Of a stretch of DNA of 64,000 bases, positions 6,316-64,000 are shown one piece after another. How positions within the stretch are numbered: position 1 is the first letter of the stretch; each line of letters starts with the position of its first letter. The position numbers were made by a program, and so were the translations under genes. Under the pieces are notes generated by a model, which worked only from the letters and a program-made list of their open reading frames with translations, had not been told where the DNA came from and made no database searches. Origin of the DNA: an uncultured delta proteobacterium (GTDB lineage Bacteria > Myxococcota_A > Polyangia > Polyangiales > Polyangiaceae); NCBI GenBank assembly GCA_963782055.1, contig CAWAIF010000003.1, positions 2,944,001-3,008,000 on the forward strand, read 5' to 3'.

Positions 6316-7113
6316 TCAAGCATTGCGGGCGACGCGGTCGCACGCCTCGCGCGCCCGCGCCACCTCGCGCGCCACGGCCTCGCGCGCCTTCTGGCAGAGC
6401 GGCCCCGCGGCCGTCTCGCCATCGGCCGGGATGGCAGCGCCCACGGCCATCACCACCGTGCTGCCCGGGCTCGCGGCGAGGCGGGCCAGGTGCTCGGGGA
6501 CGCTCTCGTCCAGGAAGGCGGCGCCCGACCCGCGCGGGTAGGCGATGCCGACTGGGATGACGTCCACCTCCGAGCGGAGCGCCGCCAGGAACGCGCCGGC
6601 GTGGAAGGGGCGGACCTCGTCGCCCTCGAAGGTGGTGCCCTCCGGGAAGACGGTGACGGTGCGGCCCTCGCGCAGGGCGTTGCGCATGACGCGGATGGCG
6701 CCCGCGCGGCTGGAGGAGCTCTGGCGGTCGACGAAGAGGGTGCCGGCCTTCCTGGCGCCCCAGCCGATGAGCGGCCAGCCGGCGACGTCGGCACGGCTGA
6801 GCAGCGCCCCGCCGAAGCCGCGCATGAGGATGACCACGTCGATCATCCCGCGGTGGTTGGCGACCACCAGGCGCGCCCGGCGGGAGGGGACCTTGTCGGC
6901 GTGGTCCGCCTCGCCGAGCACCAGCAGATCGATCCCGAACATGCGCAGCATCGCGTCGCACCACACGCGGGTGTGGCGATCGCGCAGCGCCTGCCGGTCC
7001 GCCTCCGGCGTGCTCGGCTCGCGCACCGCGTAGGCGGAGACGATGCCCGCCGTCGCGCCGAGCACGCCCAGGGCACGGCCCGCGCGTCGCGCCTGCGCCC
7101 GCACCGGGGTCAC
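6316..7113 (-). CDS. Lysophospholipid (1-acyl-glycerol-3-phosphate) acyltransferase family protein
   Basis: NH(x)4D motif (ANHRGMID), FVDR and VFPEGT; GTG start overlaps the upstream stop (GTGA). Confidence 0.88.
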   Translation of the reverse strand: MTPVRAQARRAGRALGVLGATAGIVSAYAVREPSTPEADRQALRDRHTRVWCDAMLRMFGIDLLVLGEADHADKVPSRRARLVVANHRGMIDVVILMRGFGGALLSRADVAGWPLIGWGARKAGTLFVDRQSSSSRAGAIRVMRNALREGRTVTVFPEGTTFEGDEVRPFHAGAFLAALRSEVDVIPVGIAYPRGSGAAFLDESVPEHLARLAASPGSTVVMAVGAAIPADGETAAGPLCQKAREAVAREVARAREACDRVARNA

Positions 7114-8249
7114 CAGAGCCTCCGGAGGCCGTAGGCGAGCCACTCGAAGGCGCGGCGGGTGCGGGGGCGCAGCCGCCAGGTGGCGAGGTCGACGCGCTGA
7201 CCCTCGCGGCAGTCGCGCTCGAAGGAGTCGCGCACGTGGGCGGCGAAGGCCTCGTCGTCGACGGCGAGGTTGACCTCCAGGTTCTTGCGCCAGGAGCGCT
7301 CGTCCAGGTTGTAGCTGCCGATGGTGGCGAAGTCGTCGACGATGGCGGTCTTGGCGTGGAGGACGCGCCCGGGCAGCGCGTAGATCTCCACGCCGTGCTT
7401 GAGGAGCTTGTCGAAGAGCGCCTCCACCGCGAACTGGACGATGGGGAGATCGCTGCGGTCGGGGACGAGCACGCGCACGCGCACGCCGCGCTCCGCCGCG
7501 CGCCAGAGCGCGCCGCGCACCGAGCGGTTCGGCACGAAGTAGCTGTTGGCGATGTCGACCGAGCGCTGGGCGTGCTGGATGCGCCACAGGTACTCGCGGC
7601 GGATGTCGCGCCGCTTGCGCCACGGGCTGGCGAGCACCCACACGCGGGAGGTGCGCCGGCGGTGGATGGGCCGCACGTCCGGCGGGAGGTCGCGGGGCTT
7701 GCTCCCAGGTGTGCCGTCGCTCGCCTTGCGCCAGGTGTCGTAAAAGAGGGTGCGGAGCTCCTGCGCGGCGTCGCCGCGCACCCCAATCATGTCGTCGCGC
7801 CAGCCCTGCCCGCCCTCGGCCTCGGGGAGCCACTGCCGGCTCAGGTTGATGCCGCCGGTGAAGCCGATGCGACCGTCCACCACCAGCAGCTTGCGGTGAT
7901 CGCGCCGCTCCAGCATGTCCAGCGTGAGGGCGCTGCGCAGGGGGAAGAGGGCGTGGAAGGGGACGACCTGGCCGCCCGCGTCCACCAGCCGCCCCCAGAA
8001 CGCCGGGGTGATGGCGAGGCTGCCGAAGGCGTCGTAGATGACGCGGACGGTGACCCCCTGCTTCGCCTTCTCGACCAGGGCGTCGAGGAAGCGCAGGCCC
8101 GCGCGGTCGGGGTTGACCCAGTACATCTCCAGCAGGACCTCGCGCTCGGCGTGGCGGATGGCGTCGAGCATGACGGGGAAGGCCTGCGCGCCGTCGCGCA
8201 GGAGGCAGACCTCGTCGGCACGCACGGCGAACCAGATGACGTCAGTCAC
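7110..8249 (-). CDS. Cardiolipin synthase B-like phospholipase D family protein
   Basis: Two HKD motifs (DHRKLLVVDG...GGIN; LHAKTAIVDD...GSYNLD); no N-terminal TM hairpin. Confidence 0.9.
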   Translation of the reverse strand: MTDVIWFAVRADEVCLLRDGAQAFPVMLDAIRHAEREVLLEMYWVNPDRAGLRFLDALVEKAKQGVTVRVIYDAFGSLAITPAFWGRLVDAGGQVVPFHALFPLRSALTLDMLERRDHRKLLVVDGRIGFTGGINLSRQWLPEAEGGQGWRDDMIGVRGDAAQELRTLFYDTWRKASDGTPGSKPRDLPPDVRPIHRRRTSRVWVLASPWRKRRDIRREYLWRIQHAQRSVDIANSYFVPNRSVRGALWRAAERGVRVRVLVPDRSDLPIVQFAVEALFDKLLKHGVEIYALPGRVLHAKTAIVDDFATIGSYNLDERSWRKNLEVNLAVDDEAFAAHVRDSFERDCREGQRVDLATWRLRPRTRRAFEWLAYGLRRLW

Positions 8250-10639
8250 GGTGACCTCTTGATGGGGGGGCGCGCGGCGACGATCACCAGCGCGTCGTCC
8301 TTGAGCGCGGAGGCCGCGTCGGCCTTCAACCGGGCGAGCGCGGGGGGCGGCGCGTCCTTCGTCCCGCGCCAGAGCGCGATGGCACGCGCGCGCGGGTCCA
8401 GCATGGCCTTGCGCGCGTCGGCGGCGGCGCGCGTGCGCGCGCGCGCGAGGTCAGCGTCGGTGAGGGCGCCGTGCGCGACCCGCGCGAAGAGGGCGCGCAC
8501 CTGCGTGACGGCGGCGTCCAGCGCGGAGCCCGGCGCGTCCACGTGGACGACGAGCGCGGGGGCGCTCGCCGGGCCGACGGACCGCACGTCGAAGGAGCGC
8601 GCCAGCCCGTCGCCGAGCGCGCGGGCGAGCAGGCCGTCGTGCCCGCCGAGGATGGCCGCGATCCACGGTGCCGCCGGGGCCGTCTCGCCCCGGAAGGAGG
8701 CCCCGAGGTACGCCTCGCTCGCGCCGTCGGTCTCGACGGCGTAGGTGCCCGCTCGCGGTGGGGCCGTCGTGGCCGCGGCGGGACAGGTGCGCGGGCCCGG
8801 GGTGCGCTCCACCCAGCGATCGATCGCGCGCAGCGCCTCGTCGCCCTGCGCGTGGCTGTCGTTGGCGAGGACCACCGCGCGCAGCGGGCCTCGACGCAGC
8901 GCCTCTGCCCTCGCGGCCACCGCGGCGGGCGAGAGGTGTCGCAGCCCGGCGACCGTGCCTGTCGGCAGGAGGGAGGAGGGCGCCGCCGGAGAGAGCGCGA
9001 CGGCGAGGGTGGAGAGCGCGGGCGACGCCTCTCCGAGCAGCACGCCCTGCGCGCGCGGGACGCTGTCCATGTCGTCCACCGCGAAGCTGCGCGCCGCGGC
9101 GTCGGCGATGCGCCGCGCGAGCCGGCCGGGTGACTCCTGCGGCCGCGCGCTGGCGTGCACCACCACCCCGACGCCGTCGGCGGCGACCCACGGGTCGGCC
9201 TCCACGCGGTAGACGCGCCGGGCGTGCCGCGCGACGGCGACGGCGAAGGCCGCGGAGAGGCCGGCGTCGGCCGAGGTCTCGCCGGTCACGCCGCATGCGG
9301 AGGCGACGAGCACGTAGGCCTCGCGCTGCCCGCGCTCCACCGCCGCGCGCCCCTGGACCACGGGCGCGCCCGCGTCGGCGCGCACCCTCTCCAGCTCGCG
9401 ACGGAGCGCGTCCCGCGCCGCCTCGAGATCCGCCGGCGTGGGCGCCGCGCGCGCGGTGTCGAGGCCGATCGCCACCGGACCCGGTGTGGCCGGGACGGCG
9501 CGATCATCCAGCTCGGCCAGCGCCAGCACCGCCCCCTGCTCGGCCGCGTCGCGCGGGTCGGCCAGCGGCGGCGGCGTGACGCTCGGCTCTGCGGCGGCGA
9601 TGGACATCTCGTGCTGGGCCAGGTCCACCAGGGCGGCGACGCGCGCCGGCGCCTTGCGCGCGTCGGCGGGCGCGCGCAGCGTCACCGAGATGCACGCCGA
9701 GCGCGCGTGGGTGCTGGCGATGACCGACTCCACGCGCGCGGCAGGCTCGGTGGCGCGGAGCCGCGCGACGAGCGCGCCGTCGCGCGCGCCGAGGGATGCC
9801 GCCGCGTCCGGGGCGCGCGCGGCGTCGAGGCGCAGCGTGAGCGATACGCGCGTCGTCCCGGGCGTGCCGTCGTCGCTGGCGTCGTAGACCGCGAGGTCCG
9901 TCGTGGGCGCCGCCTCCGGCGGGAGGGGCGCCGCATCGGGCCACGCCGGCCCGGACGTCAGGCCCGCGGCGACGCTGCGGACGAAGGCGTCTGGGCCGAC
10001 CGCGGCCCAGGCCACGCGGCCGAGGCCGCCGGCGGCCTTCCGCCACGCGTCCAGCTCGGCGACCGACGGCAGCGCGGCGGGCGGCGGGCGCACGACCCTG
10101 CCGTCGCACGCAGCGACCGGCGCGAGGGCGCGGGGGACGGCGCGGAGGTTGCCGAGCGCGGTGAGCTTGACCAGCGCCGCGGCGCGGTCCGCGTCGGACA
10201 CCGGGTCGAGCAGCGCCGCGCGAAGCAGCGCGGCGGTGGCGGCGGCGTCGGCCGGTCGCTGCACCCACCCGCGGACCCGGAAGCCGTCCGCCTGCGGCAC
10301 GACCGCCACATCGGACCAGCCACGCGCGCGCAGGCGCGCCTGGACGACGGCGCCGAGGGCCACCGCGACCGTGGCGCCGCGCTCGGGCGCGATGCCCTCG
10401 GTGGTCACGGCGGCCGCCAGGCCGTCGAGCGGGTCGCCGTCACGCACCAGCGTGGCGAGCGGCGGGCGCCCCGCGGCGCGGAGGACCGACTGGGTGGGAG
10501 CCCTGTACGGGGCGGCGGACGGCGTCGTGGTGGTGTGCCGGACCGCGGGTGTGCACGCGACCGCCGCGGCGATCTGCGCCACGAGGGCGAGGACGCTCAG
10601 CTCACTTCGCCTGGCCCGGCGAGCCCGCTCCTCCGCCAT
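8246..10639 (-). CDS. Large Ala-rich putative lipoprotein, possibly a degenerate peptidase-M16-like protein
   Basis: 797-aa ORF; lipobox-like AVAC after a hydrophobic stretch; C-terminal WIAAILGG..GLLARAL and GALTDADLARAR recall M16 C-domains; no HxxEH. Confidence 0.6.
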   Translation of the reverse strand: MAEERARRARRSELSVLALVAQIAAAVACTPAVRHTTTTPSAAPYRAPTQSVLRAAGRPPLATLVRDGDPLDGLAAAVTTEGIAPERGATVAVALGAVVQARLRARGWSDVAVVPQADGFRVRGWVQRPADAAATAALLRAALLDPVSDADRAAALVKLTALGNLRAVPRALAPVAACDGRVVRPPPAALPSVAELDAWRKAAGGLGRVAWAAVGPDAFVRSVAAGLTSGPAWPDAAPLPPEAAPTTDLAVYDASDDGTPGTTRVSLTLRLDAARAPDAAASLGARDGALVARLRATEPAARVESVIASTHARSACISVTLRAPADARKAPARVAALVDLAQHEMSIAAAEPSVTPPPLADPRDAAEQGAVLALAELDDRAVPATPGPVAIGLDTARAAPTPADLEAARDALRRELERVRADAGAPVVQGRAAVERGQREAYVLVASACGVTGETSADAGLSAAFAVAVARHARRVYRVEADPWVAADGVGVVVHASARPQESPGRLARRIADAAARSFAVDDMDSVPRAQGVLLGEASPALSTLAVALSPAAPSSLLPTGTVAGLRHLSPAAVAARAEALRRGPLRAVVLANDSHAQGDEALRAIDRWVERTPGPRTCPAAATTAPPRAGTYAVETDGASEAYLGASFRGETAPAAPWIAAILGGHDGLLARALGDGLARSFDVRSVGPASAPALVVHVDAPGSALDAAVTQVRALFARVAHGALTDADLARARTRAAADARKAMLDPRARAIALWRGTKDAPPPALARLKADAASALKDDALVIVAARPPIKRSP

Positions 10640-26754: not shown

Positions 26755-27756
26755 ATGCTCCGCGTGCCTCGAATGCCCCGCTCGCTGGCGTCCGCGGCGG
26801 TGCTGGCGGCGGTGCTCGCCTTGCCCGCTGTCGCCCGGGCGGACGCGGCGCCGGGAGCCGCTGGCTCCGCGTCCGCGCAGCCGCCTGCCACGAAGACCGC
26901 GACTGCCGCGAAGACCGCGCCCGCGCCGCACCGCAACCGCGTGCGCTGGGACCCCGCATGGCCGCACGCCAACGCGTGGGATTACACGCTCGCCGGTGTG
27001 GGCGCCACGACGGCGCTGGTCGAGGCGATCGTGCTGCAGCCGATGAGGCCGCCCCTGCACTGGACGGATCCCATCCTGTTCGACAGCGACGTGCGCGACG
27101 CCCTGCGCCTCACCGACCCCACCGGACGCGACGTGCTGGAGGGCGTGAGCTGGGGGCTCTGGGGCGCGCAGCTCGCGCTGCCCCTGCTCGTGGACGTGCC
27201 GTACGCGTGGGGCCGCTACGGCTTCTGGTTGGCGCGCGACCTCTTCTGGCAGGACGCGGCCACCCTCACCGTCGCGGCCGCGCTCGACCTGGGGCTCCGC
27301 AATCTCGCCGGCCGCGCGCGTCCCTTGACCTACGACTGCCTCTCCCACGGCGGCACCAACTGCCTCGACGGGGTGGAGACCACGCGTTCCTTCCCGGGCG
27401 GGCACCTCATCAACGCGACGGCGGCCTCGGTGCTCGCGTGCACGCAGCACCTCTACACGCACCTGTACGGCGGTCCCTGGGACGCCGTGGCGTGCGCCAC
27501 GACGTTGGCGTCGGACATGACCATCACCGTGCTGCGCGTGGTGACCGACAACCACTGGGCGACCGACCAGCTCGCCGGCCTGGCGATCGGCGCCCTCGTC
27601 GGGTGGGGGGTGCCCTACCTGATGCACTACCGGTTTCACGGTCGCCCGGCGGCCGACGAGACGTCATCCTCGTCGTCGCCGCCGGGCGCTCTCATCCTGC
27701 CGGTGCCGCTCGCCTACGAGGGGGGCGGCGGCCTCGGCGTGGCCGCGATCTTCTGA
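26755..27756 (+). CDS. PAP2-family phosphatase with signal peptide
   Basis: R..AGRARP, SFPGGH, LRVVTDNHWATD motifs; start at 26755 or 26773. Confidence 0.85.
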   Translation: MLRVPRMPRSLASAAVLAAVLALPAVARADAAPGAAGSASAQPPATKTATAAKTAPAPHRNRVRWDPAWPHANAWDYTLAGVGATTALVEAIVLQPMRPPLHWTDPILFDSDVRDALRLTDPTGRDVLEGVSWGLWGAQLALPLLVDVPYAWGRYGFWLARDLFWQDAATLTVAAALDLGLRNLAGRARPLTYDCLSHGGTNCLDGVETTRSFPGGHLINATAASVLACTQHLYTHLYGGPWDAVACATTLASDMTITVLRVVTDNHWATDQLAGLAIGALVGWGVPYLMHYRFHGRPAADETSSSSSPPGALILPVPLAYEGGGGLGVAAIF

Positions 27757-27812: not shown

Positions 27813-28730
27813 CTACTGGGTGAGGCGGAAGAACTCGTCCATCGGCGTGGCGTTCGCGGTCGTCGCGAGGCGCGGGAGTCGCAGGATGTCCTCGACGGTG
27901 GCCAGGTACGACGCGTGGTCGAAGGCGGTCTGGCTCACGTAGCCGTTCGCCACCAGGTTGGGCGAGGCGACGATGGTCGCCAGGTTGGCGCCGGCGCCCA
28001 GGAAGCGCGTGTTGCCCTCGTCGAAGAGGACGAAGAGCGCGCCGCCGTTCTTGTAGCCCGGGGAGTCCATGATCTGCGTCACGACCTTCTTCAGCCATGC
28101 GTCGACGACGTCACCGGGGCAGTTGTGCATGTCGTTGCACATGTTCGGCGTGATCCACATGTAGCGGTACGTGTTCGCCGCGAGGTCGGTCGCGAAGTTC
28201 TGGTCGAAGTCCACCACGTGGTCTGCGCAGCGTGAGGGGTTGCTCGCCATCGTCGTGTAGTAGACGAAGGGGTTGTGGTGGGCGGAGTAGTCGCCCGTCG
28301 TGTCGAACTTGCAGGGCTCGCCCATGCTCTCCATGTACGCGCGCCACGGGACGCTCGCAGCGTCGAGCTGGTCGGCGATGTTGTCGGTGCCGCCGACCTG
28401 CACGTTGTAGCGGGGGTCGTTGTCGGTGGTGACGCCGTGCGTGCTGCCGGAGGTCATCTCGATGTAGTTGGGCAGGCTCGGGTGCGTGGTGGACACGTAC
28501 GCGGCGGCCTGGCCGTACTGGCTGGCGAGGGAAGAGAAGAAGGGAAGCGTGGGGAGGATGTTGGACTGGTCTTCGTTCTCGAAGACGATGGTGAACACCG
28601 TCCCGGTGACGTTGGGCGCCTGGACACTCGGGTTCCCCTGGACCCCAGGATTGGTGGCCGAGGAGCAACCCGTGGCGAGGGATGCCGTGCCGAGGGCGCC
28701 GGCGGCGAGGAGGGCGATGGCGTGTTTCAT
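27813..28730 (-). CDS. Phosphoesterase (acid phosphatase/alkaline-phosphatase superfamily) lipoprotein
   Basis: Lipobox ATGC; VFTIVFEN, THPSLPNY, HHNPF, ITPNMCNDMH, LFDE, FDHASYLATVE. Confidence 0.88.
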   Translation of the reverse strand: MKHAIALLAAGALGTASLATGCSSATNPGVQGNPSVQAPNVTGTVFTIVFENEDQSNILPTLPFFSSLASQYGQAAAYVSTTHPSLPNYIEMTSGSTHGVTTDNDPRYNVQVGGTDNIADQLDAASVPWRAYMESMGEPCKFDTTGDYSAHHNPFVYYTTMASNPSRCADHVVDFDQNFATDLAANTYRYMWITPNMCNDMHNCPGDVVDAWLKKVVTQIMDSPGYKNGGALFVLFDEGNTRFLGAGANLATIVASPNLVANGYVSQTAFDHASYLATVEDILRLPRLATTANATPMDEFFRLTQ

Positions 28731-28946: not shown

Positions 28947-29654
28947 ATGTCCACCATCCCCTCCTCTTTCCGTCTCGCGCTGCTGGGCTTGCTCGCCAGC
29001 GCCTGCACGTACCCCACACTCTCGCCACACCTCGCCGAGGGTACGGATGTGCTCAAGCCCGGTCAGATCGGCCTGACGGTGGCCGGCGGCGGCGGCGGCG
29101 GCGGCTACACGATCGCCAGCGGCACCAACAGCACCAGCACCAGCACCGCCGGCGGCGGCGCGGAAGCGCGTGTGCGCGTCGGCTTGCCCGGCCACCAGGA
29201 GATCGGCGCCAGCGGCGCCGCCGGCATCGCCTCTGCCATCACCGGCGACCCGCCGGTCGTCGCCGGCGGTGAGCTCTCCTACAAGATCGCGCCGCTCCCC
29301 TGGATGGCGTTCGTGGTCGATCTCGGGGCGATGGACCGCGTCATCTCCAGCACCGCCATCCTGGGCGGGTCGCTCGCGGCCATCTTCGCCCCCTACACCT
29401 GGAAGGGCGGCTCGCAGTTTTACACCGGCCTCAAGGGCTCGATCACCGTGCCCATCCTCCAGGACGCTTCGGGGACGGCCGAGCTCATCGACGTGCCGGT
29501 GGGCCTCGCGTGGCACGCCAGCGAGCGCGTCCGGCTCTACGCCGAGGGAGGCTTCCTCCTCGGCTTCGACCAGATCAACAGCGGCGGCACCACGACCAGC
29601 ACGTCCGGCTACGGCGGCTACGGGATGCTGGCGTTCGGGTACGTGTTCCGCTGA
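28947..29654 (+). CDS. Hypothetical lipoprotein, probable small outer-membrane beta-barrel
   Basis: Lipobox LASAC; alternating amphipathic strands; C-terminal LAFGYVFR. Confidence 0.7.
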   Translation: MSTIPSSFRLALLGLLASACTYPTLSPHLAEGTDVLKPGQIGLTVAGGGGGGGYTIASGTNSTSTSTAGGGAEARVRVGLPGHQEIGASGAAGIASAITGDPPVVAGGELSYKIAPLPWMAFVVDLGAMDRVISSTAILGGSLAAIFAPYTWKGGSQFYTGLKGSITVPILQDASGTAELIDVPVGLAWHASERVRLYAEGGFLLGFDQINSGGTTTSTSGYGGYGMLAFGYVFR

Positions 29655-29717: not shown

Positions 29718-31472
29718 TCAATGCGTGGGGCGCTCCAGGGCGACGAGGCGGAAGCCGCGGGCGGGGCCGAGGTCGTAGAGGTCGGCGACGAGGGGACCCT
29801 TCGCGACGCCGTCCTCGACGACGACGCGCACGTAGCGCCGGGCGTCGTCGTCCGCCGGGCCGCCGTCGGGCGCGACGTGCGGCAGGGCGACGCAGACCTG
29901 GCCACCTGGGAGGTGGGACGCCGGCAGCGCCTCGCCGCTCATGGTGCGCGCGGCGTAGTGGAAGCTCGCGGCGTCGCGCAGACCGCGCCACTCGGCGAGG
30001 TCCACGCCGCAGAGGGTGGCGCCGCCCGCCACGTGCACGCCGGCGATGGGCGAGAGGCGCGTGAGGTAGCGCTGGAGGATCTTCTGCAGACGCCCGTCCA
30101 GCACCTGCGCGAGGTACGTCGTCTGGGCCGGGTCGGTGAACTTGCCCGTCCGCACCAGGGCGAGCACCAGGTCCGGCGTGAAGTGCGCCAGCACGCGCGC
30201 CATCCAGGCGGCGTCGCGCTCGGTCATGCGGGAGAAGGCCGCGTTGGGGTATTCCGGCTTCCAGTCCTGCGGGACGAAGTCCTTCACGTTGAAGTAGCCG
30301 AAGATCTCGTGGCCCGGCGTGAGGCGCACCGTGTCCCACGGTCGGATCGGGATGCCGAGCGTCGCGAAGTCCGCGCCGATGTCGCCCCAGTCGACGATGT
30401 ACGACGTGCCCAGCCGGCGGTCGATGGGATCCCAGCCCCAGAAGGAGCCCAGCGCCTCGCTGGTGTCGAGCTGGTAGTGGATCACGTGCCCGGGGGAGGA
30501 GTCGGGCGGGCGCTTGGCGTCGGCGATCCAGGTGTCCAGCGAGTTGGCCTCCCGCGCGTCGTGGCGCTCGATCCACGCCGCCAGCAAGCGCATCGCGCGC
30601 AGCTCGCGCCGGTCCTCGTGCGGCACGACGTCGCTCGGGTCGTCGTCGCGCGTGCCGTCGTAGCGGAAGGGGCCGATGGCGTAGCCGTCGATCCACGCCG
30701 ACGCGCTCACGCGCACCAGGCCGTCGCGCCGGGTGGCGCGCGCGATGTCGGCGTCGAAGGCCGCCCTGTCGTACGGCTTCCGCGCGCTGAAGTTGTTCGC
30801 GTAGGTGAGGCCGGGGGTGAGCGTGAAGACCGAGGGGCTGACGTACAGCACCTGCTCGCACGGCGCGTTGTAGCCGGCGGCGTAGAAGACCCTGGAGCCG
30901 ATCACCGTGGCCGCGCTCTGCCGCTCCGGCTCCTCGTCGGCGAGCTCCAGCTTGATGTAGTACTTGCCCTTGCCCGGCACGCGGACCCGGAATGCGGGCG
31001 TCCAGCCCTGGGTCTTGCCCTTGTCGATCACCCACGACCCCTCGGCCGCGTGGGCGGGGTCGAGGAGCTGGTCGGGGCGGCACGCGCCCATCGTGATCTG
31101 CGCGGGCGTCATGGGGTGGAGCCCGATGCGGTTCTGGAACCACGTCGAGTCGGGCACCTCGTCCATGCTGTTGACGTCGACCGACTCGCCGCTCGTCTGC
31201 AGATAGAGCGCATCGGAGAGGGGGCGGAAGAAGAGGTTGTCGGCGCCGTCCCAGTAGAGCGGCGAGTCGTAGGGCTCCGGCGCGCACGACACGTGGTGGG
31301 GGTCCTTCTTGTCCGGCTGCTCGTGACAGCGCGCGTAGACCGACGCGAGATCGCCGTCGCGCCACACCGGCGCCGCGAGCGGGAAGCGCGCCTCCGTCGA
31401 CGCGCAGCCGGTCGACGCGCAGCCGGCGAGGACGGCGAGGGCGACGAGTCCGAGCGTGGTTCTGGCGTTCAT
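29718..31472 (-). CDS. Uncharacterised lipoprotein with atypical protein-kinase-like motifs
   Basis: Lipobox LAGC; KTQGWTP..., YYIKLE, HDAREAN (DxxxxN) and QLDTSEALG in kinase-fold order. Confidence 0.75.
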   Translation of the reverse strand: MNARTTLGLVALAVLAGCASTGCASTEARFPLAAPVWRDGDLASVYARCHEQPDKKDPHHVSCAPEPYDSPLYWDGADNLFFRPLSDALYLQTSGESVDVNSMDEVPDSTWFQNRIGLHPMTPAQITMGACRPDQLLDPAHAAEGSWVIDKGKTQGWTPAFRVRVPGKGKYYIKLELADEEPERQSAATVIGSRVFYAAGYNAPCEQVLYVSPSVFTLTPGLTYANNFSARKPYDRAAFDADIARATRRDGLVRVSASAWIDGYAIGPFRYDGTRDDDPSDVVPHEDRRELRAMRLLAAWIERHDAREANSLDTWIADAKRPPDSSPGHVIHYQLDTSEALGSFWGWDPIDRRLGTSYIVDWGDIGADFATLGIPIRPWDTVRLTPGHEIFGYFNVKDFVPQDWKPEYPNAAFSRMTERDAAWMARVLAHFTPDLVLALVRTGKFTDPAQTTYLAQVLDGRLQKILQRYLTRLSPIAGVHVAGGATLCGVDLAEWRGLRDAASFHYAARTMSGEALPASHLPGGQVCVALPHVAPDGGPADDDARRYVRVVVEDGVAKGPLVADLYDLGPARGFRLVALERPTH

Positions 31473-31482
31473 GGCTTCTCCA

Positions 31483-32940
31483 TCAGAAAAGGAGGGGCAC
31501 CCCGAAGGAGACGCGCCCCGACTGGATCGTGGCGCCGTGGTCGAAGGTGTCGGTGCCCAGGCCGACGATCACCTCGATGGGCGGATCGGTCGTCGTCCGC
31601 AGCCCGATGCCACCGGAGAAACGCAGCAGCTTGGGGTCGAAGCCCTCCAGGTGCGGGCCGAAGACGTTGCCCACGGTGGCCACGAGGCTGGCGTCCAGGT
31701 ACGGGGCGATGGGCCAGTGATACTGGAGCGACGCCACGGCCGCGCTGCGTCCGAGGAGCCGCCCGGGCAGGTAGCCGGTCATCCAGACCTCGTCTCCCAG
31801 GGCCACCAGCTCGGTGAACGGGATGGGTTCGGAGGTGAGGGGATCGGCGAAGAGGGTGCCCGCCGAGAGCTCGAGGATGCGCCCGTGCCCGTTCACGTCG
31901 AGGAAGCCGCTCGCCACGGCGCCGTAGCGCATCCACGCCGAGGCGGGGGCGTGCGAGACATCGCTCCCCACGTAGCCTTGCGCCGTCAGCCGGACGCCGG
32001 AGCCAGTCTTGGCGCCGAAGCGACGCGTGTCGAGCGACGCCTCCAGGCGCCCCGTCGGTCCGCTGTAGCTCCTGTCGAAGCCGAAGGGGATGGAGAAGGC
32101 GCCCGTCGCCGCGCGCGCCTCGACGCTCGGGTCGCTGCGGTACTCGCCCGACGTGACGTCCACCTTGCGCACGCCCGCGGCGACCAGCACGCGGCTCCTT
32201 CGCCAGATGCGGGCCTCGAAGGACGCGTGGGCCTCGAAGCGAGCCTCGGAGTAGCGGCTCTCGTCCGACTGCCTGGACTCCGGACCGATGCCGTAGAAGG
32301 GATCGTCCGGCCGGTGCACGCCGACCGCCCGGATCTGCAGGGTGTCCCGGTCGTCGTGGAAGCGCCAGCGGTCGGTGAGCGTCCCGCTCAGCCAGTCGTC
32401 CGGCCAGACCTCGTAGTGCACCCGCAGATCGTTGCCCTTCACGTAGAAGGCGTCGTTCCAGAAGCCGTACAGGCCCACGCTGGGGTTGAGACCGAACTCC
32501 ACGAAGCCCACGGGGACGATGCCGCCCTTGTGGTCGGGCACGAAGACGAAGAAGTCGTACGCCTTGCGCGGGAGGTCGGCGCGCTCGGCCGCGATGGTCA
32601 GCGCGCCGAGCGGCTTGCGCAGGAGCACCTCGCTCGTCAGGTACAGCGGCGACAGGAGCATGCGCAGGGGCCAGAGCCCCGGCTCGCCGGGCTGCGCCTC
32701 CGGGTTGCCGCGGCCGTCGTAGTCGGGCACCGCGCGCTTTGGCGTGGGCGGATGGTGGCGGTCCGCCACGGTGGAGGAGGGCTCGTCCCCCGCGGCCCGC
32801 GCCGCAGACTCGCCCGCGCTGATCGCCAGGCAGACGGCGATCGCGGTCACGGTGCGCCCGAGCGTCGACGGCCCGGACCAGCGAGGTTGGTGGGCGCGGA
32901 GCATCACGGAGCGCGTGGGTGCAGCGCTCGTGCCACGCAC
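31483..32940 (-). CDS. Omp85 (BamA/TamA-superfamily) beta-barrel without POTRA domains
   Basis: Signal peptide; FYGIGP, PFTELVALG..WMTGYLPGRLLG (loop-6-like), GGIGLR, terminal VSFGVPLLF; start uncertain. Confidence 0.75.
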   Translation of the reverse strand: MRGTSAAPTRSVMLRAHQPRWSGPSTLGRTVTAIAVCLAISAGESAARAAGDEPSSTVADRHHPPTPKRAVPDYDGRGNPEAQPGEPGLWPLRMLLSPLYLTSEVLLRKPLGALTIAAERADLPRKAYDFFVFVPDHKGGIVPVGFVEFGLNPSVGLYGFWNDAFYVKGNDLRVHYEVWPDDWLSGTLTDRWRFHDDRDTLQIRAVGVHRPDDPFYGIGPESRQSDESRYSEARFEAHASFEARIWRRSRVLVAAGVRKVDVTSGEYRSDPSVEARAATGAFSIPFGFDRSYSGPTGRLEASLDTRRFGAKTGSGVRLTAQGYVGSDVSHAPASAWMRYGAVASGFLDVNGHGRILELSAGTLFADPLTSEPIPFTELVALGDEVWMTGYLPGRLLGRSAAVASLQYHWPIAPYLDASLVATVGNVFGPHLEGFDPKLLRFSGGIGLRTTTDPPIEVIVGLGTDTFDHGATIQSGRVSFGVPLLF

Positions 32941-33092
32941 GGCCGAGGCGCCCGTAGCCTGCCCTGCGTGCCCCGCCCCGCACCGATTGCAGCCGCGCCG
33001 CAGCGCGTTCGTCTGCCGGTCGAGGGCGAGTGGGACCGTGTGCTCCGTTTGTGAGTCACGGGAGGCACGACGTGGTAATAGCGGCGCAGTCC

Positions 33093-34544
33093 ATGCGCAT
33101 CCTGATGGTGTCCTCGGAGGTCGAGACCTTCGCCCGCACGGGCGGCCTGGGCGACGCGGTGCTCGGCCTGGCGCGCGCCCTGGCCAAGCTGGGTCACGAT
33201 GTGTGCGTGGTCACTCCGCGGTATGGAAACACCACCATGCCGGGCCCGGTGCACTGGTGGTTCGGCAAGATCCCGGTGCGGGTCGGCTGGGGCCCCGCCG
33301 ACGAGGTCGACCTCGGGGTGGGCGAGGCGCGGCTGGAGGTGGGGCCGGGGACCCTGCGCGTCTGCCTGCTCGAGGACCCCTTCCTCTTCGGCAACCGACG
33401 CGGCATCTACGAGGACGAGGCCGGGACCTTCGGAGACAACGAGCGCCGCTTCGCGGTGCTCTCCCGTGGCGCGCTGGAGGTGGCGGCGCGCCTCTGGCCG
33501 GACGGCGTGGACGTCATTCACGCCCACGACTGGCACGCCGCCCTCGCGGTGATCTATGCGCGCACCGTGATGGGAGACGCCTGGGCGCGGGTGCACTCCG
33601 TCTTCACGATCCACAACCTCGCCTACCAGGGCGTGCTCGGCTTCGAGGCGCTGGACCGCCTGGGGATCCCACGCGGCCTGTTCCACTGGCAGTGCCTGGA
33701 GCACGACGGCCACGTCAACCTGATGAAGGGCGCCATCGCCCTGGCCAGCGTCGTCACCACGGTGAGCCCGACCTATGCGCGCGAGATCCGCCGCCGCCAG
33801 ACGGGCTTCTACCTGGACTGGTTTCTGCGCATGCACTCGCAGAAGCTGATCGGCATCACGAACGGCCTCGACGAGGAGCGCCTCGATCCCAGGACCGACA
33901 CCCGGATCGCCCGGCAGTACGGGGCGGAGGACGTCTGGAACGGCAAGTGGGCGTGCAAGCAGGCGCTGCAGCGGGAGATGGACCTGGAGCCGGGGGGCGC
34001 GCCGCTCTTCGGATGCGTCTCGCGTCTCACCGACCAGAAGGGCGTCGACCTGCTCGACGCGGCGCTCCCGGTGCTGATCGACCGCGGCGCGTCGGTGGTG
34101 CTGGTGGGCAAGGGCGACGCGCGGCTGGAGGACATGCAGCGTCGCGCCGCCCTGCGCTACCCGGGGCGCGTGGCGACGCGCATCGGGTTCGACCCGGACC
34201 TCGCGCAGCGCGCGTACTCCGGATGCGACTTCATCGTGATGCCCTCGCGGTTCGAGCCGTGCGGCCTCACCCAGCTCTACGCGATGCGCTTCGGCGCCGT
34301 GCCGGTGGTGACCGACGTCGGTGGCCTCCACGACACCGTCGAGCAGGCGAACCTCGCGCGCGGGACCGGGACGGGCTTCGTCGCCGGCGCGCCGACGCTC
34401 GTGGACCTGGTGGTCGCGCTGGAGGATGCGCTGGGGGCCTTCCTCGCGCACAACGCCTTCCAGGGGCTGCGGCAGCGGGCGATGCGCCGGGACAGCTCCT
34501 GGACGACCTCCGCGCGGACGTACCTCGCGCGCGCCTACGCGTGA
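33093..34544 (+). CDS. glgA: Glycogen synthase (GT5)
   Basis: MRILMVSSE...RTGGLGD, IHAHDWH, FTIHNLAYQG, TTVSPTYA, SRLTDQKG, MPSRFEPCGLTQLYAMRFG. Confidence 0.95.
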   Translation: MRILMVSSEVETFARTGGLGDAVLGLARALAKLGHDVCVVTPRYGNTTMPGPVHWWFGKIPVRVGWGPADEVDLGVGEARLEVGPGTLRVCLLEDPFLFGNRRGIYEDEAGTFGDNERRFAVLSRGALEVAARLWPDGVDVIHAHDWHAALAVIYARTVMGDAWARVHSVFTIHNLAYQGVLGFEALDRLGIPRGLFHWQCLEHDGHVNLMKGAIALASVVTTVSPTYAREIRRRQTGFYLDWFLRMHSQKLIGITNGLDEERLDPRTDTRIARQYGAEDVWNGKWACKQALQREMDLEPGGAPLFGCVSRLTDQKGVDLLDAALPVLIDRGASVVLVGKGDARLEDMQRRAALRYPGRVATRIGFDPDLAQRAYSGCDFIVMPSRFEPCGLTQLYAMRFGAVPVVTDVGGLHDTVEQANLARGTGTGFVAGAPTLVDLVVALEDALGAFLAHNAFQGLRQRAMRRDSSWTTSARTYLARAYA

Positions 34545-62929: not shown

Positions 62930-64000
62930 TCAGAAGAAGTTGCCGATGGTGAACTCGAAGTCCATCGGCTGCTCGTAAGGCAGCCGGTACAGCGGGAAGC
63001 CCCACTCGAACCGCAGCGGGCCGAGCGGCGAGAACCACCGGATGCCGAACCCGGAGCTCGTCCGCAGGTACGCCAGGCTGTCGGCGGTGAAGCAGGGGCT
63101 CACCACCTTGTCGAACTGCGGCGCGGGCGTCGTCCGGCAGAACTGGTCCTCGGTGTTCCACGCGTTGCCGGCGTCGAAGAAGACGACGCCGCGGATACCC
63201 ACCTTGTCCAGGATGGGGAACTCCAGCTCGAGGTTCATGTACGCCTCGAGGTTGCCGCCGATGTTCGCCCCGTTGGTGATGGGCGGGGAGTTGGGGTCGA
63301 GCGACTGGTTGAGCGGCAGGCGCGGGCCGATGCTCCGCAGGAGGAATCCGCGCACGTCCAGGATGCCGCCCAGAAAGAAGCGCTGGTAGATGGGCACGCC
63401 CTGCGGGCTGGGGCTGGTGATGAGGCCGACCTCGGTGTTGAGCTTCAGCACGAAGCCGGAGCCGGGCATGCCGTTGCCGCCGCCCAGCGGGTAGTAGAAG
63501 CGGCCGGTGAAGCGCTGCCGCCAGAACTCCACCTCGCTCCCGAAGGCGCTCGACGCCAGCTCGCTCGACGCGTTCAGGTACACGCCCGACGTCGGGAAGA
63601 GGCGGTTGTTGCGCGTGTCCAGCACGATGGCCGGGCGCAGCGAGATCGTCAGGCCGCTGTTGAACAGGTTGGCGAGCGGCAGGTTCTGGAAGACGCCGTA
63701 GTAAGGGTTGCTGGTGCCCAGCGTGCCGAAGAGCGTCGTCGACGAGTTGTCGACCTGATCGTACTCCGCGGTGCCTGTCAGGCTGGTGCGCAGCCACGGC
63801 TGGATGAGCGCGTAGCCGAAGGTGAGCGACCCGCCCAGGCTCCGCCGCGCGAAGTTGGGGTAGACGTAGAGCTGATCGTAGAGCTCGGTGCTCATCGACC
63901 AGTCCGTCCCGAAGAAGTACGGCTCGAAGAAGCGCAGGCTGACGACCTGCCGGAGCGAGCTCACCTGCGCGGAGAGTGCCAGCGACTGCCCGTTGCCGAA
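62930..64000 (-). CDS. bamA: Outer membrane protein assembly factor BamA (3' part; continues beyond the window)
   Basis: FGNGQSL, FFEPY, DTRNNRLFPTSG, RFFLGG..DVRGF, FFDAGN, GFGIRWFSPLGPLRFEWGFP, FEFTIGNFF. Confidence 0.95.
   Translation of the reverse strand, partial: FGNGQSLALSAQVSSLRQVVSLRFFEPYFFGTDWSMSTELYDQLYVYPNFARRSLGGSLTFGYALIQPWLRTSLTGTAEYDQVDNSSTTLFGTLGTSNPYYGVFQNLPLANLFNSGLTISLRPAIVLDTRNNRLFPTSGVYLNASSELASSAFGSEVEFWRQRFTGRFYYPLGGGNGMPGSGFVLKLNTEVGLITSPSPQGVPIYQRFFLGGILDVRGFLLRSIGPRLPLNQSLDPNSPPITNGANIGGNLEAYMNLELEFPILDKVGIRGVVFFDAGNAWNTEDQFCRTTPAPQFDKVVSPCFTADSLAYLRTSSGFGIRWFSPLGPLRFEWGFPLYRLPYEQPMDFEFTIGNFF

Follow-up and report, generated by a model that had tools for sequence, protein, structure and literature searches.

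Whether a kinase could operate at the outer membrane of a free-living Gram-negative bacterium, when the periplasm is generally held to contain no ATP, is the question raised by two adjacent genes in a 64,000-nucleotide stretch of DNA (the window, to which all bare positions refer) from the 7.58-Mb genome of an uncultured member of the Polyangiaceae. One gene encodes a barrel of the Omp85 type that lacks POTRA domains, and the other an exported lipoprotein predicted to carry an atypical protein-kinase-like (PKL) domain. An initial annotation, made from the sequence, had proposed that the two form a two-partner system placing a kinase or pseudokinase at the outer membrane, and had pointed to the scarcity of ATP in that compartment. 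The analyses reported here identified a third partner that the initial annotation had not seen, a carrier of the NTT/TLC nucleotide transporter family, and these linked carriers are a candidate answer to the ATP puzzle. The resulting envelope module is real, conserved and apparently undescribed; its parts have known folds, and the combination is the new element.

A conserved gene pair and its linked carrier

The two genes are co-directional on the minus strand, as the initial annotation had described them, with a 10-bp gap that carries GGAG ahead of the ATG of the lipoprotein gene. The barrel open reading frame (ORF) extends over 31483..32940 (485 amino acids (aa) from the GTG at 32940), and the ATG at 32904 is the likelier start, yielding a signal peptide that ends in AARA. 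The GC content at third codon positions is 0.95-0.97 for the pair, and both ORFs are genuine. No sigma-70 promoter was found at the pair, and terminator matches were at chance level. Neither protein reached the Pfam or NCBIfam cut-offs, and no PDB sequence relatives of either were found.

Neighbour searches, run with profiles derived from the present data, placed a barrel gene near the kinase gene in 60 of 79 GTDB loci (41/49 with full flanks), in 29/31 loci of a phylum search, which may overlap the 79 GTDB loci, and in 60/78 metagenome loci, including 38 of the 40 that were at least 10 kb long. The two genes thus form a conserved core with strong synteny, a property that the initial annotation had named as a test of its proposal. 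The genome itself holds a second pair (C3:4199652-4203963), whose members are 38% and 32% identical to those of the window.

Genes for TLC-type carriers were found near the kinase gene in 42/79 GTDB loci (31/49 with full flanks), 16/31 phylum loci and 30/78 metagenome loci (26/40 of the long ones); the whole genome holds four such carriers, and about 0.01 would be expected per 14-kb stretch. All five linked carriers that were checked passed the Pfam TLC model, and matches to NTT1 in the PDB had E values of 2e-9 and 8e-9. The NTT/TLC carrier is the third partner of the pair. Beside the second pair, the carrier gene lies at G000:C3:4204141-4205409, and its product is 55-60% identical to carriers that stand by the closest relatives of the window kinase (L007, L017, L038 and L051), a resemblance which suggests that the cassette is split between the window locus and the second locus.

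The second locus as a whole (G000:C3:4199652-4205409; L005:9650-15413) has a sigma-54 activator that separates the barrel gene from the kinase gene, together with a divergent carrier of the Lys type described below, a layout that recurs in L204. The three further TLC-type carriers of the genome (G000:C3:3834186-3837344, 4524510-4525958 and 6247567-6248910; one of them a 1051-aa long form) have no barrel or kinase alongside.

A predicted atypical kinase on a lipid anchor

The AlphaFold2 model of the lipoprotein (62 sequences; predicted local distance difference test (pLDDT) 86.7) predicts a bilobed PKL fold at residues ~120-470, between a lipobox with Cys18 or Cys23 and a C-terminal Ig-like domain at ~469-580. 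Its elements comprise beta1-loop-beta2, beta3 (169-175), a helix (184-199), a loop (302-310) and a strand (328-334). Foldseek matched the model to Fam20 and CtkA with E values of 3e-4 to 9e-4, and in a wide VIA structure search the top 14 of 48,161 chains were all atypical PKL kinases, with Z scores of 13.2 for CtkA (3akj; root-mean-square deviation (rmsd) 3.8, 229 residues aligned), 12.2 for PI4KII-alpha (4hnd), 12.1 for Fam20 (5xom) and 12.0 for CotH (5jda); residues 469-580 resembled Ig-like domains. With these kinases, and with actin-fragmin kinase and HipA/HipT, the lipoprotein shares the predicted fold (Z 9-13) and the K, DxxxxN and D(F)G motifs, but identity is 8-12%, and the lipoprotein adds its lipid anchor, a conserved N-terminal arm (DEVPDSxWF), an Arg-rich segment (PHEDRRELR) and the Ig-like tail. 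Fam20 and CotH work in extracytoplasmic compartments. At the sequence level, no Pfam kinase match was obtained among 62 members at E<=0.1, including to the Fam20C, CotH, HipA or PI3-4K family profiles, and a 97-sequence profile of the family found no PDB sequence relative; one distant member matched HipA_2 weakly (E 0.014).

The motifs that the initial annotation had read in kinase order, KTQGWTP, YYIKLE and QLDTSEALG, are present and sit on the expected elements of the predicted model, and HDAREAN lies at the position it had given. Conservation was assessed in a close set, the 120 proteins closest to the lipoprotein, and in a diverse set of 103, consisting of the query and the full-length (480-620 aa) sequences among 150 listed representatives. 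Both tests that had been set for this protein, a PKL fold and conserved K/D/N/D residues, gave positive results, the fold by Foldseek and VIA on the predicted model and the residues in 93-98 of the 103 diverse homologues (Table 1). The 120 closest proteins all keep R307 and six Cys in addition to K174, D305 and N310, and at the metal-binding site the family consensus is DFG, where the window protein has DTS. Since K/D/N/D are present and conserved across the family, the window copy looks like an active kinase, as judged from its sequence; it carries the full catalytic set, yet is sister to a clade in which Asp336 is Gly.

A lipobox pattern was found in 106/113 close and 64/93 diverse full-length homologues, and some homologues, such as L188, have an ordinary signal peptide instead. 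Asp or Lys did not occur at the lipobox +2 position, which, by the sorting rules described for E. coli and M. xanthus (PMC3222651), argues against retention of the lipoprotein in the inner membrane. The family gave 1408 matches among 8000 candidates, with 795 representatives at E<=1e-30 and 2894 at E<=0.001. Named close homologues belong to the Polyangiaceae, two of ten members looked up bore phylum-level names (Acidobacteriota, Calditrichia), and the Atlas clusters of the family are from Myxococcota and Acidobacteriota.

A distantly related kinase-like domain also occurs in large proteins (frames of ~1000-1400 aa) at L085:94-3663, L086:2808-7022 and 6398-10018, and L087:2-2935. The L086 proteins are tandem copies, and the L085 protein, the one checked, has no Pfam match. 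No barrel-profile match was found near the weak phylum matches L085-L088, which were excluded as more distant kinase-like proteins.

The barrel and the probable side of the kinase

The barrel model (58 sequences, pLDDT 84.9) consists of a disordered N-terminus, three helices and then 16 strands, with no POTRA domain and no enzyme domain ahead of the strands. BamA and TamA are its best structural matches (Foldseek BamA E 1e-11; VIA Z 23.4, rmsd 4.1, 305 residues aligned), so that the model agrees with the 16-stranded, POTRA-less Omp85-like barrel of the initial annotation. Omp85 was the sole Pfam family matched by the 58 barrel members at E<=0.01 (31/58 members; DUF5982 was not among the matches), the family profile matches H. 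ducreyi BamA with an E value of 1e-4, and the window barrel itself matches no Pfam family at E<=1. The degenerate loop 6 that had been pointed out, MTGY against VRGF in the BamA at 62930, was seen as well; the lid-lock Arg is absent, and the acidic partner on strand 13 is also lost (ATVGN instead of FxDxG). The canonical BamA, of which the C-terminal part lies at 62930-64000 (minus strand) and is cut by the window end, has VRGF and FFDAG. Across 149 barrel family rows, which were not de-duplicated and include a few other Omp85s, 77 lack both residues, 39 keep only the Arg, 31 keep both and two keep only the acid, the acid thus being kept almost only together with the Arg (31/33 rows).

About 90 residues precede strand 1, including helices (residues 87-131 of the 485-aa ORF) in which R93, P98, E104, R108 and P110 are invariant, and these helices are a plausible candidate docking site for the kinase. 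The noNterm Omp85 proteins (PMC4104836), including the Leptospira paralogues (PMC11358297), likewise have a 16-stranded barrel without POTRA, additional to BamA. The leptospiral proteins, as described in the latter report, keep (L/M)RG(W/Y) and FxDxG and have periplasmic regions of 22-43 aa, whereas the window barrel has lost both lid-lock residues, has the longer N-terminal region and comes with a fixed kinase partner. Neither report uses the word kinase in its main text.

The single clean kinase-to-barrel fusion, P0154, has the kinase N-terminal to strand 1, i.e., on the periplasmic side. PlpD joins a lipase-type domain and a barrel in one chain, with a single POTRA. In this patatin-Omp85 protein the enzyme domain is coupled to the barrel and is periplasmic, which provides a precedent for a periplasmic enzyme on an Omp85 (PMC11116518); unlike PlpD, the window enzyme is a separate kinase-fold lipoprotein that is linked to nucleotide carriers and phosphatases. 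A periplasmic topology is favored because of the clean fusion and the PlpD precedent. Other candidate evidence for contact was set aside. Fusions L033 and L093 look like artefacts, 11 longer proteins with a kinase domain were read as frameshift read-throughs or partial joins, and a search for longer proteins with the barrel alignment gave no fusion (weak evidence). Inter-protein co-variation over 120 gene pairs was not significant: its top pair of positions, barrel 96 with kinase 91 (z 11.8), was reached by 6/100 shuffles. With a movable block, a co-variation cluster in the barrel N-terminal helices was matched by 9-12/100 shuffles for small blocks and by 59-70/100 at the original block size, and a mirror-tree r of 0.83 merely mirrors linkage.

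A different placement, in which the kinase lipoprotein is flipped outward by the barrel and acts from the cell surface on prey, neighbours or matrix, would fit the tight 10-bp gene coupling, the likeness of the Ig-like domain to adhesin modules, the adhesin-like lipoprotein genes that adjoin leptospiral noNterm Omp85 genes (PMC11358297) and the CtkA and MavQ-type folds among the top structural matches. We judge such surface display quite improbable, as the barrel has neither POTRA nor lid-lock, the clean fusion puts the kinase ahead of strand 1, some homologues (including L188) have an ordinary signal peptide, and the linkage to an inner-membrane carrier, with its loss on catalytic decay, would be left unexplained. 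In two-partner secretion (TPS) systems, TpsA is a passenger exported through Sec that bears a TPS domain at its N-terminus. No TPS family match was found in the lipoprotein, and the partner here is a lipoprotein with a kinase fold. With a barrel that lacks POTRA, a partner that has its own lipoprotein signal and a fusion that holds the kinase on the periplasmic side, the two-partner export of the initial annotation, in the TpsA/TpsB sense, is not upheld.

Carriers, phosphatases and catalytic integrity

The relation between carrier and catalysis was counted on sequences de-duplicated at 97% (192 sequences) with at least 3 kb of flank on both sides and a carrier within 6 kb. A carrier was present by 68/103 intact kinases versus 0/12 degenerate ones; without the flank filter, the counts were 86/173 and 3/19. 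On the tree, catalytic residues were lost in about six lineages, five of them without carrier, the Asp336Gly clade alone having carriers. As kin are not independent, carrier loss alongside catalytic decay is treated as a pattern and not as a P value. A basal clade (L090, L091, L098, L199 and L200) consists of fully degenerate pseudokinase paralogues, of which four of five keep the barrel and none has a carrier nearby.

Among 301 genomes of the phylum, 40 had a match to the kinase profile, a weak one in five cases. TLC carriers were searched in 30 genomes, a kinase-less twelfth genome of the window's own family (1.8 Mb) being excluded. Within this family, Pfam TLC was found in 0/11 kinase-less genomes versus 9/11 kinase-bearing genomes, and one of the TLC-less kinase-bearing genomes carries a dead kinase copy only.

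Exported phosphatases also recur. PAP2 genes were near the kinase in 28/80 loci (20/40 long metagenome loci), and both phosphatase genes in the window match neighbours of the pair elsewhere. The 235-aa protein encoded nearby is possibly a small barrel, judging by its sequence (Table 1). Divergent from the barrel gene is a gene for the glycogen synthase GlgA (33030-34544, plus strand), which is not recurrent beside the pair in other loci; the genome holds two further glgA-like genes.

Table 1. Positions of the gene pair, its key residues and adjacent genes in the window
Feature	Position	Strand	Properties
POTRA-less Omp85-type 16-stranded barrel (predicted)	31483..32904	-	Sec signal peptide, conserved KRxxPDYDGRG stretch, predicted periplasmic helices
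Exported lipoprotein, 584 aa	29718..31472	-	lipobox, predicted atypical protein-kinase-like domain, Ig-like tail, six invariant Cys
Lys174, beta3 lysine, predicted ATP binding	30951..30953	-	93/103 diverse, 120/120 close homologues
Catalytic loop H-D305-x-R-x-x-N310	30543..30563	-	D 98/103, N 96/103 diverse; both 120/120 close
Asp336, metal-binding 'DFG' Asp	30465..30467	-	98/103 diverse; 73/120 close, Gly in 47
Loop-6 motif MTGY, lid-lock Arg lost	31771..31782	-	motif as defined in PMC11358297
Phosphoesterase-family (PF04185) lipoprotein	27813..28730	-	recurs beside the pair in close relatives
Exported PAP2-family phosphatase	26755..27756	+	signal peptide, near-intact motifs; PAP2 recurs beside the pair
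235-aa protein, no Pfam family	28947..29654	+	lipobox-like start, aromatic-ending C-terminal strand; beside the pair in 4 close loci

Genes for cyclic-nucleotide-binding (cNMP-binding) proteins were near the kinase in 16/80 loci and 17/40 long metagenome loci, NTT-HEAT genes recur along with them beside the pair, and sigma-54 activators occur in 12 loci. In L188:1994-11431, the barrel and a non-lipoprotein kinase lie between two HEAT-repeat carriers and cNMP-domain genes; one of these carriers passes Pfam TLC, and the other matches only our own profile. Recurrent NTT-HEAT, cNMP-binding and sigma-54 activator genes would suit a sensor, in which the kinase fold senses a nucleotide or ligand at the outer membrane, NTT-HEAT and cNMP-domain proteins relay the signal inward and the window copy may be drifting to inactivity, as would the sister position of the Asp336Gly clade and the persistence of fully dead paralogues with barrels. 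Given that the window copy retains K, D, N and D and that fully degenerate copies drop the carrier instead of keeping it, a sensor or pseudokinase role appears distinctly unlikely.

The carrier of the second locus retains a Lys in the position of the GK(S) motif of NTT1 from plastids and chlamydiae, and we take this Lys to correspond to Lys527 of AtNTT1. NTT ATP/ADP carriers swap ATP for ADP plus phosphate (Pi), and Lys527 is the gamma-phosphate lysine of AtNTT1 (PMC2606016). The Lys-type carrier is the type found by close relatives of the window protein, and six of nine Lys-type loci also have a phosphoesterase.

A proposed periplasmic phosphorylation cycle

We propose a periplasm-facing kinase that docks on the barrel and is fed with nucleotide exported by the carrier, with phosphatases closing the cycle; we consider this the most likely reading, with about even odds of being right. 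Its observed ground comprises the genes, the conserved catalytic residues and the linkage to barrel, carrier and phosphatase genes, to which the models add two predicted folds, kinase-like and Omp85 barrel. The lipoprotein would arrive at the periplasmic face of the outer membrane, where it would bind the conserved N-terminal helices of the barrel, which, with its lid-lock gone, would be a scaffold or a substrate conduit rather than a BamA-type insertase. The carrier would run outward, with ATP out and ADP plus phosphate in, supplying ATP or another nucleotide, and the exported PAP2 and PF04185 phosphatases would undo the phosphorylation and return phosphate. The window copy would use a carrier encoded elsewhere, probably the one by the paralogous pair at G000:C3:4204141-4205409. 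Because the nearest folds are PI4KII, Fam20 and CotH, the most likely substrates would be head groups of envelope lipids or glycans, or proteins that are exported. A complete cycle in free-living Gram-negatives, from ATP export by NTT through a barrel-docked kinase and phosphatases to re-import of ADP and Pi, is possible, though we lean towards doubting it.

Several observations weigh against the proposed cycle. There is no nucleotide carrier in the window, 35 of the 103 intact kinases with flanks have none nearby, and a carrier does accompany three short-flanked copies in which Asp336 is Gly. All of the sister-family genomes contained TLC (8/8), four of them being kinase-less; additionally, genomes with the kinase are larger, and related genomes do not count as independent cases. 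In the kinase, Asp336 is missing (Gly) in 47/120 close homologues, Gly160 (119/120) is Ala in the window protein alone, and the helix-C acid at position 189, E or D in 86/103 diverse homologues, is Thr in the window protein, for which E183, kept in 119/120 close homologues, may substitute. The Lys that we map to the gamma-phosphate Lys is present in just 9/115 linked carriers, with Asp or Gln in most, so ATP may not be what many of them transport. Among related non-canonical NTTs, one carries NAD and another failed in nucleotide transport, and the NTTs characterised are described as importers (PMC5381601).

The same barrel, carrier and phosphatase linkage could instead serve nutrient scavenging, with the barrel letting in nucleotides or phospho-compounds (e.g., those of soil or of lysed prey), which the kinase-fold protein would bind or phosphorylate, the phosphatases would trim and the NTT would import inward. 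The uptake role of known NTTs (PMC5381601) and the difference of most linked carriers from ATP/ADP exchangers at the gamma-phosphate Lys speak for scavenging, and loss of the lid-lock might leave the barrel more open. We nevertheless regard it as unlikely, since every close homologue retains Asp305 and Asn310 (120/120), beyond the need of pure binding, the kinase would still require a periplasmic phosphate donor, and substrate-binding or TonB genes are not prominent among the recurring neighbours.

Significance

The linked carriers belong to the same family as the NTT/TLC carriers of PMC5381601, and the NTT-HEAT arrangement with an adjacent gene for a cyclic-nucleotide-binding domain described there is also seen by the pair. 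The main text of that report does not mention kinase, Omp85, periplasm, outer membrane or export, and a barrel-kinase link is not described in it. No published description of the pair or module was found, although Omp85 survey tables may list such barrels as noNterm and subscription papers were outside the scope of the search.

The module is present in cultured Sorangium strains (L073-L076 and L081), and a widespread exported kinase and nucleotide carrier module makes the view that the periplasm holds no ATP directly testable. Two groups so far orphan, the Omp85 barrels that lack POTRA and the NTT carriers found in free-living bacteria, would gain a function from it, and the kinase-fold proteins form a large family without a name (the 795 representatives at E<=1e-30). 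If true, the phosphorylation cycle would parallel, in bacteria, the kinase system of the eukaryotic secretory pathway.

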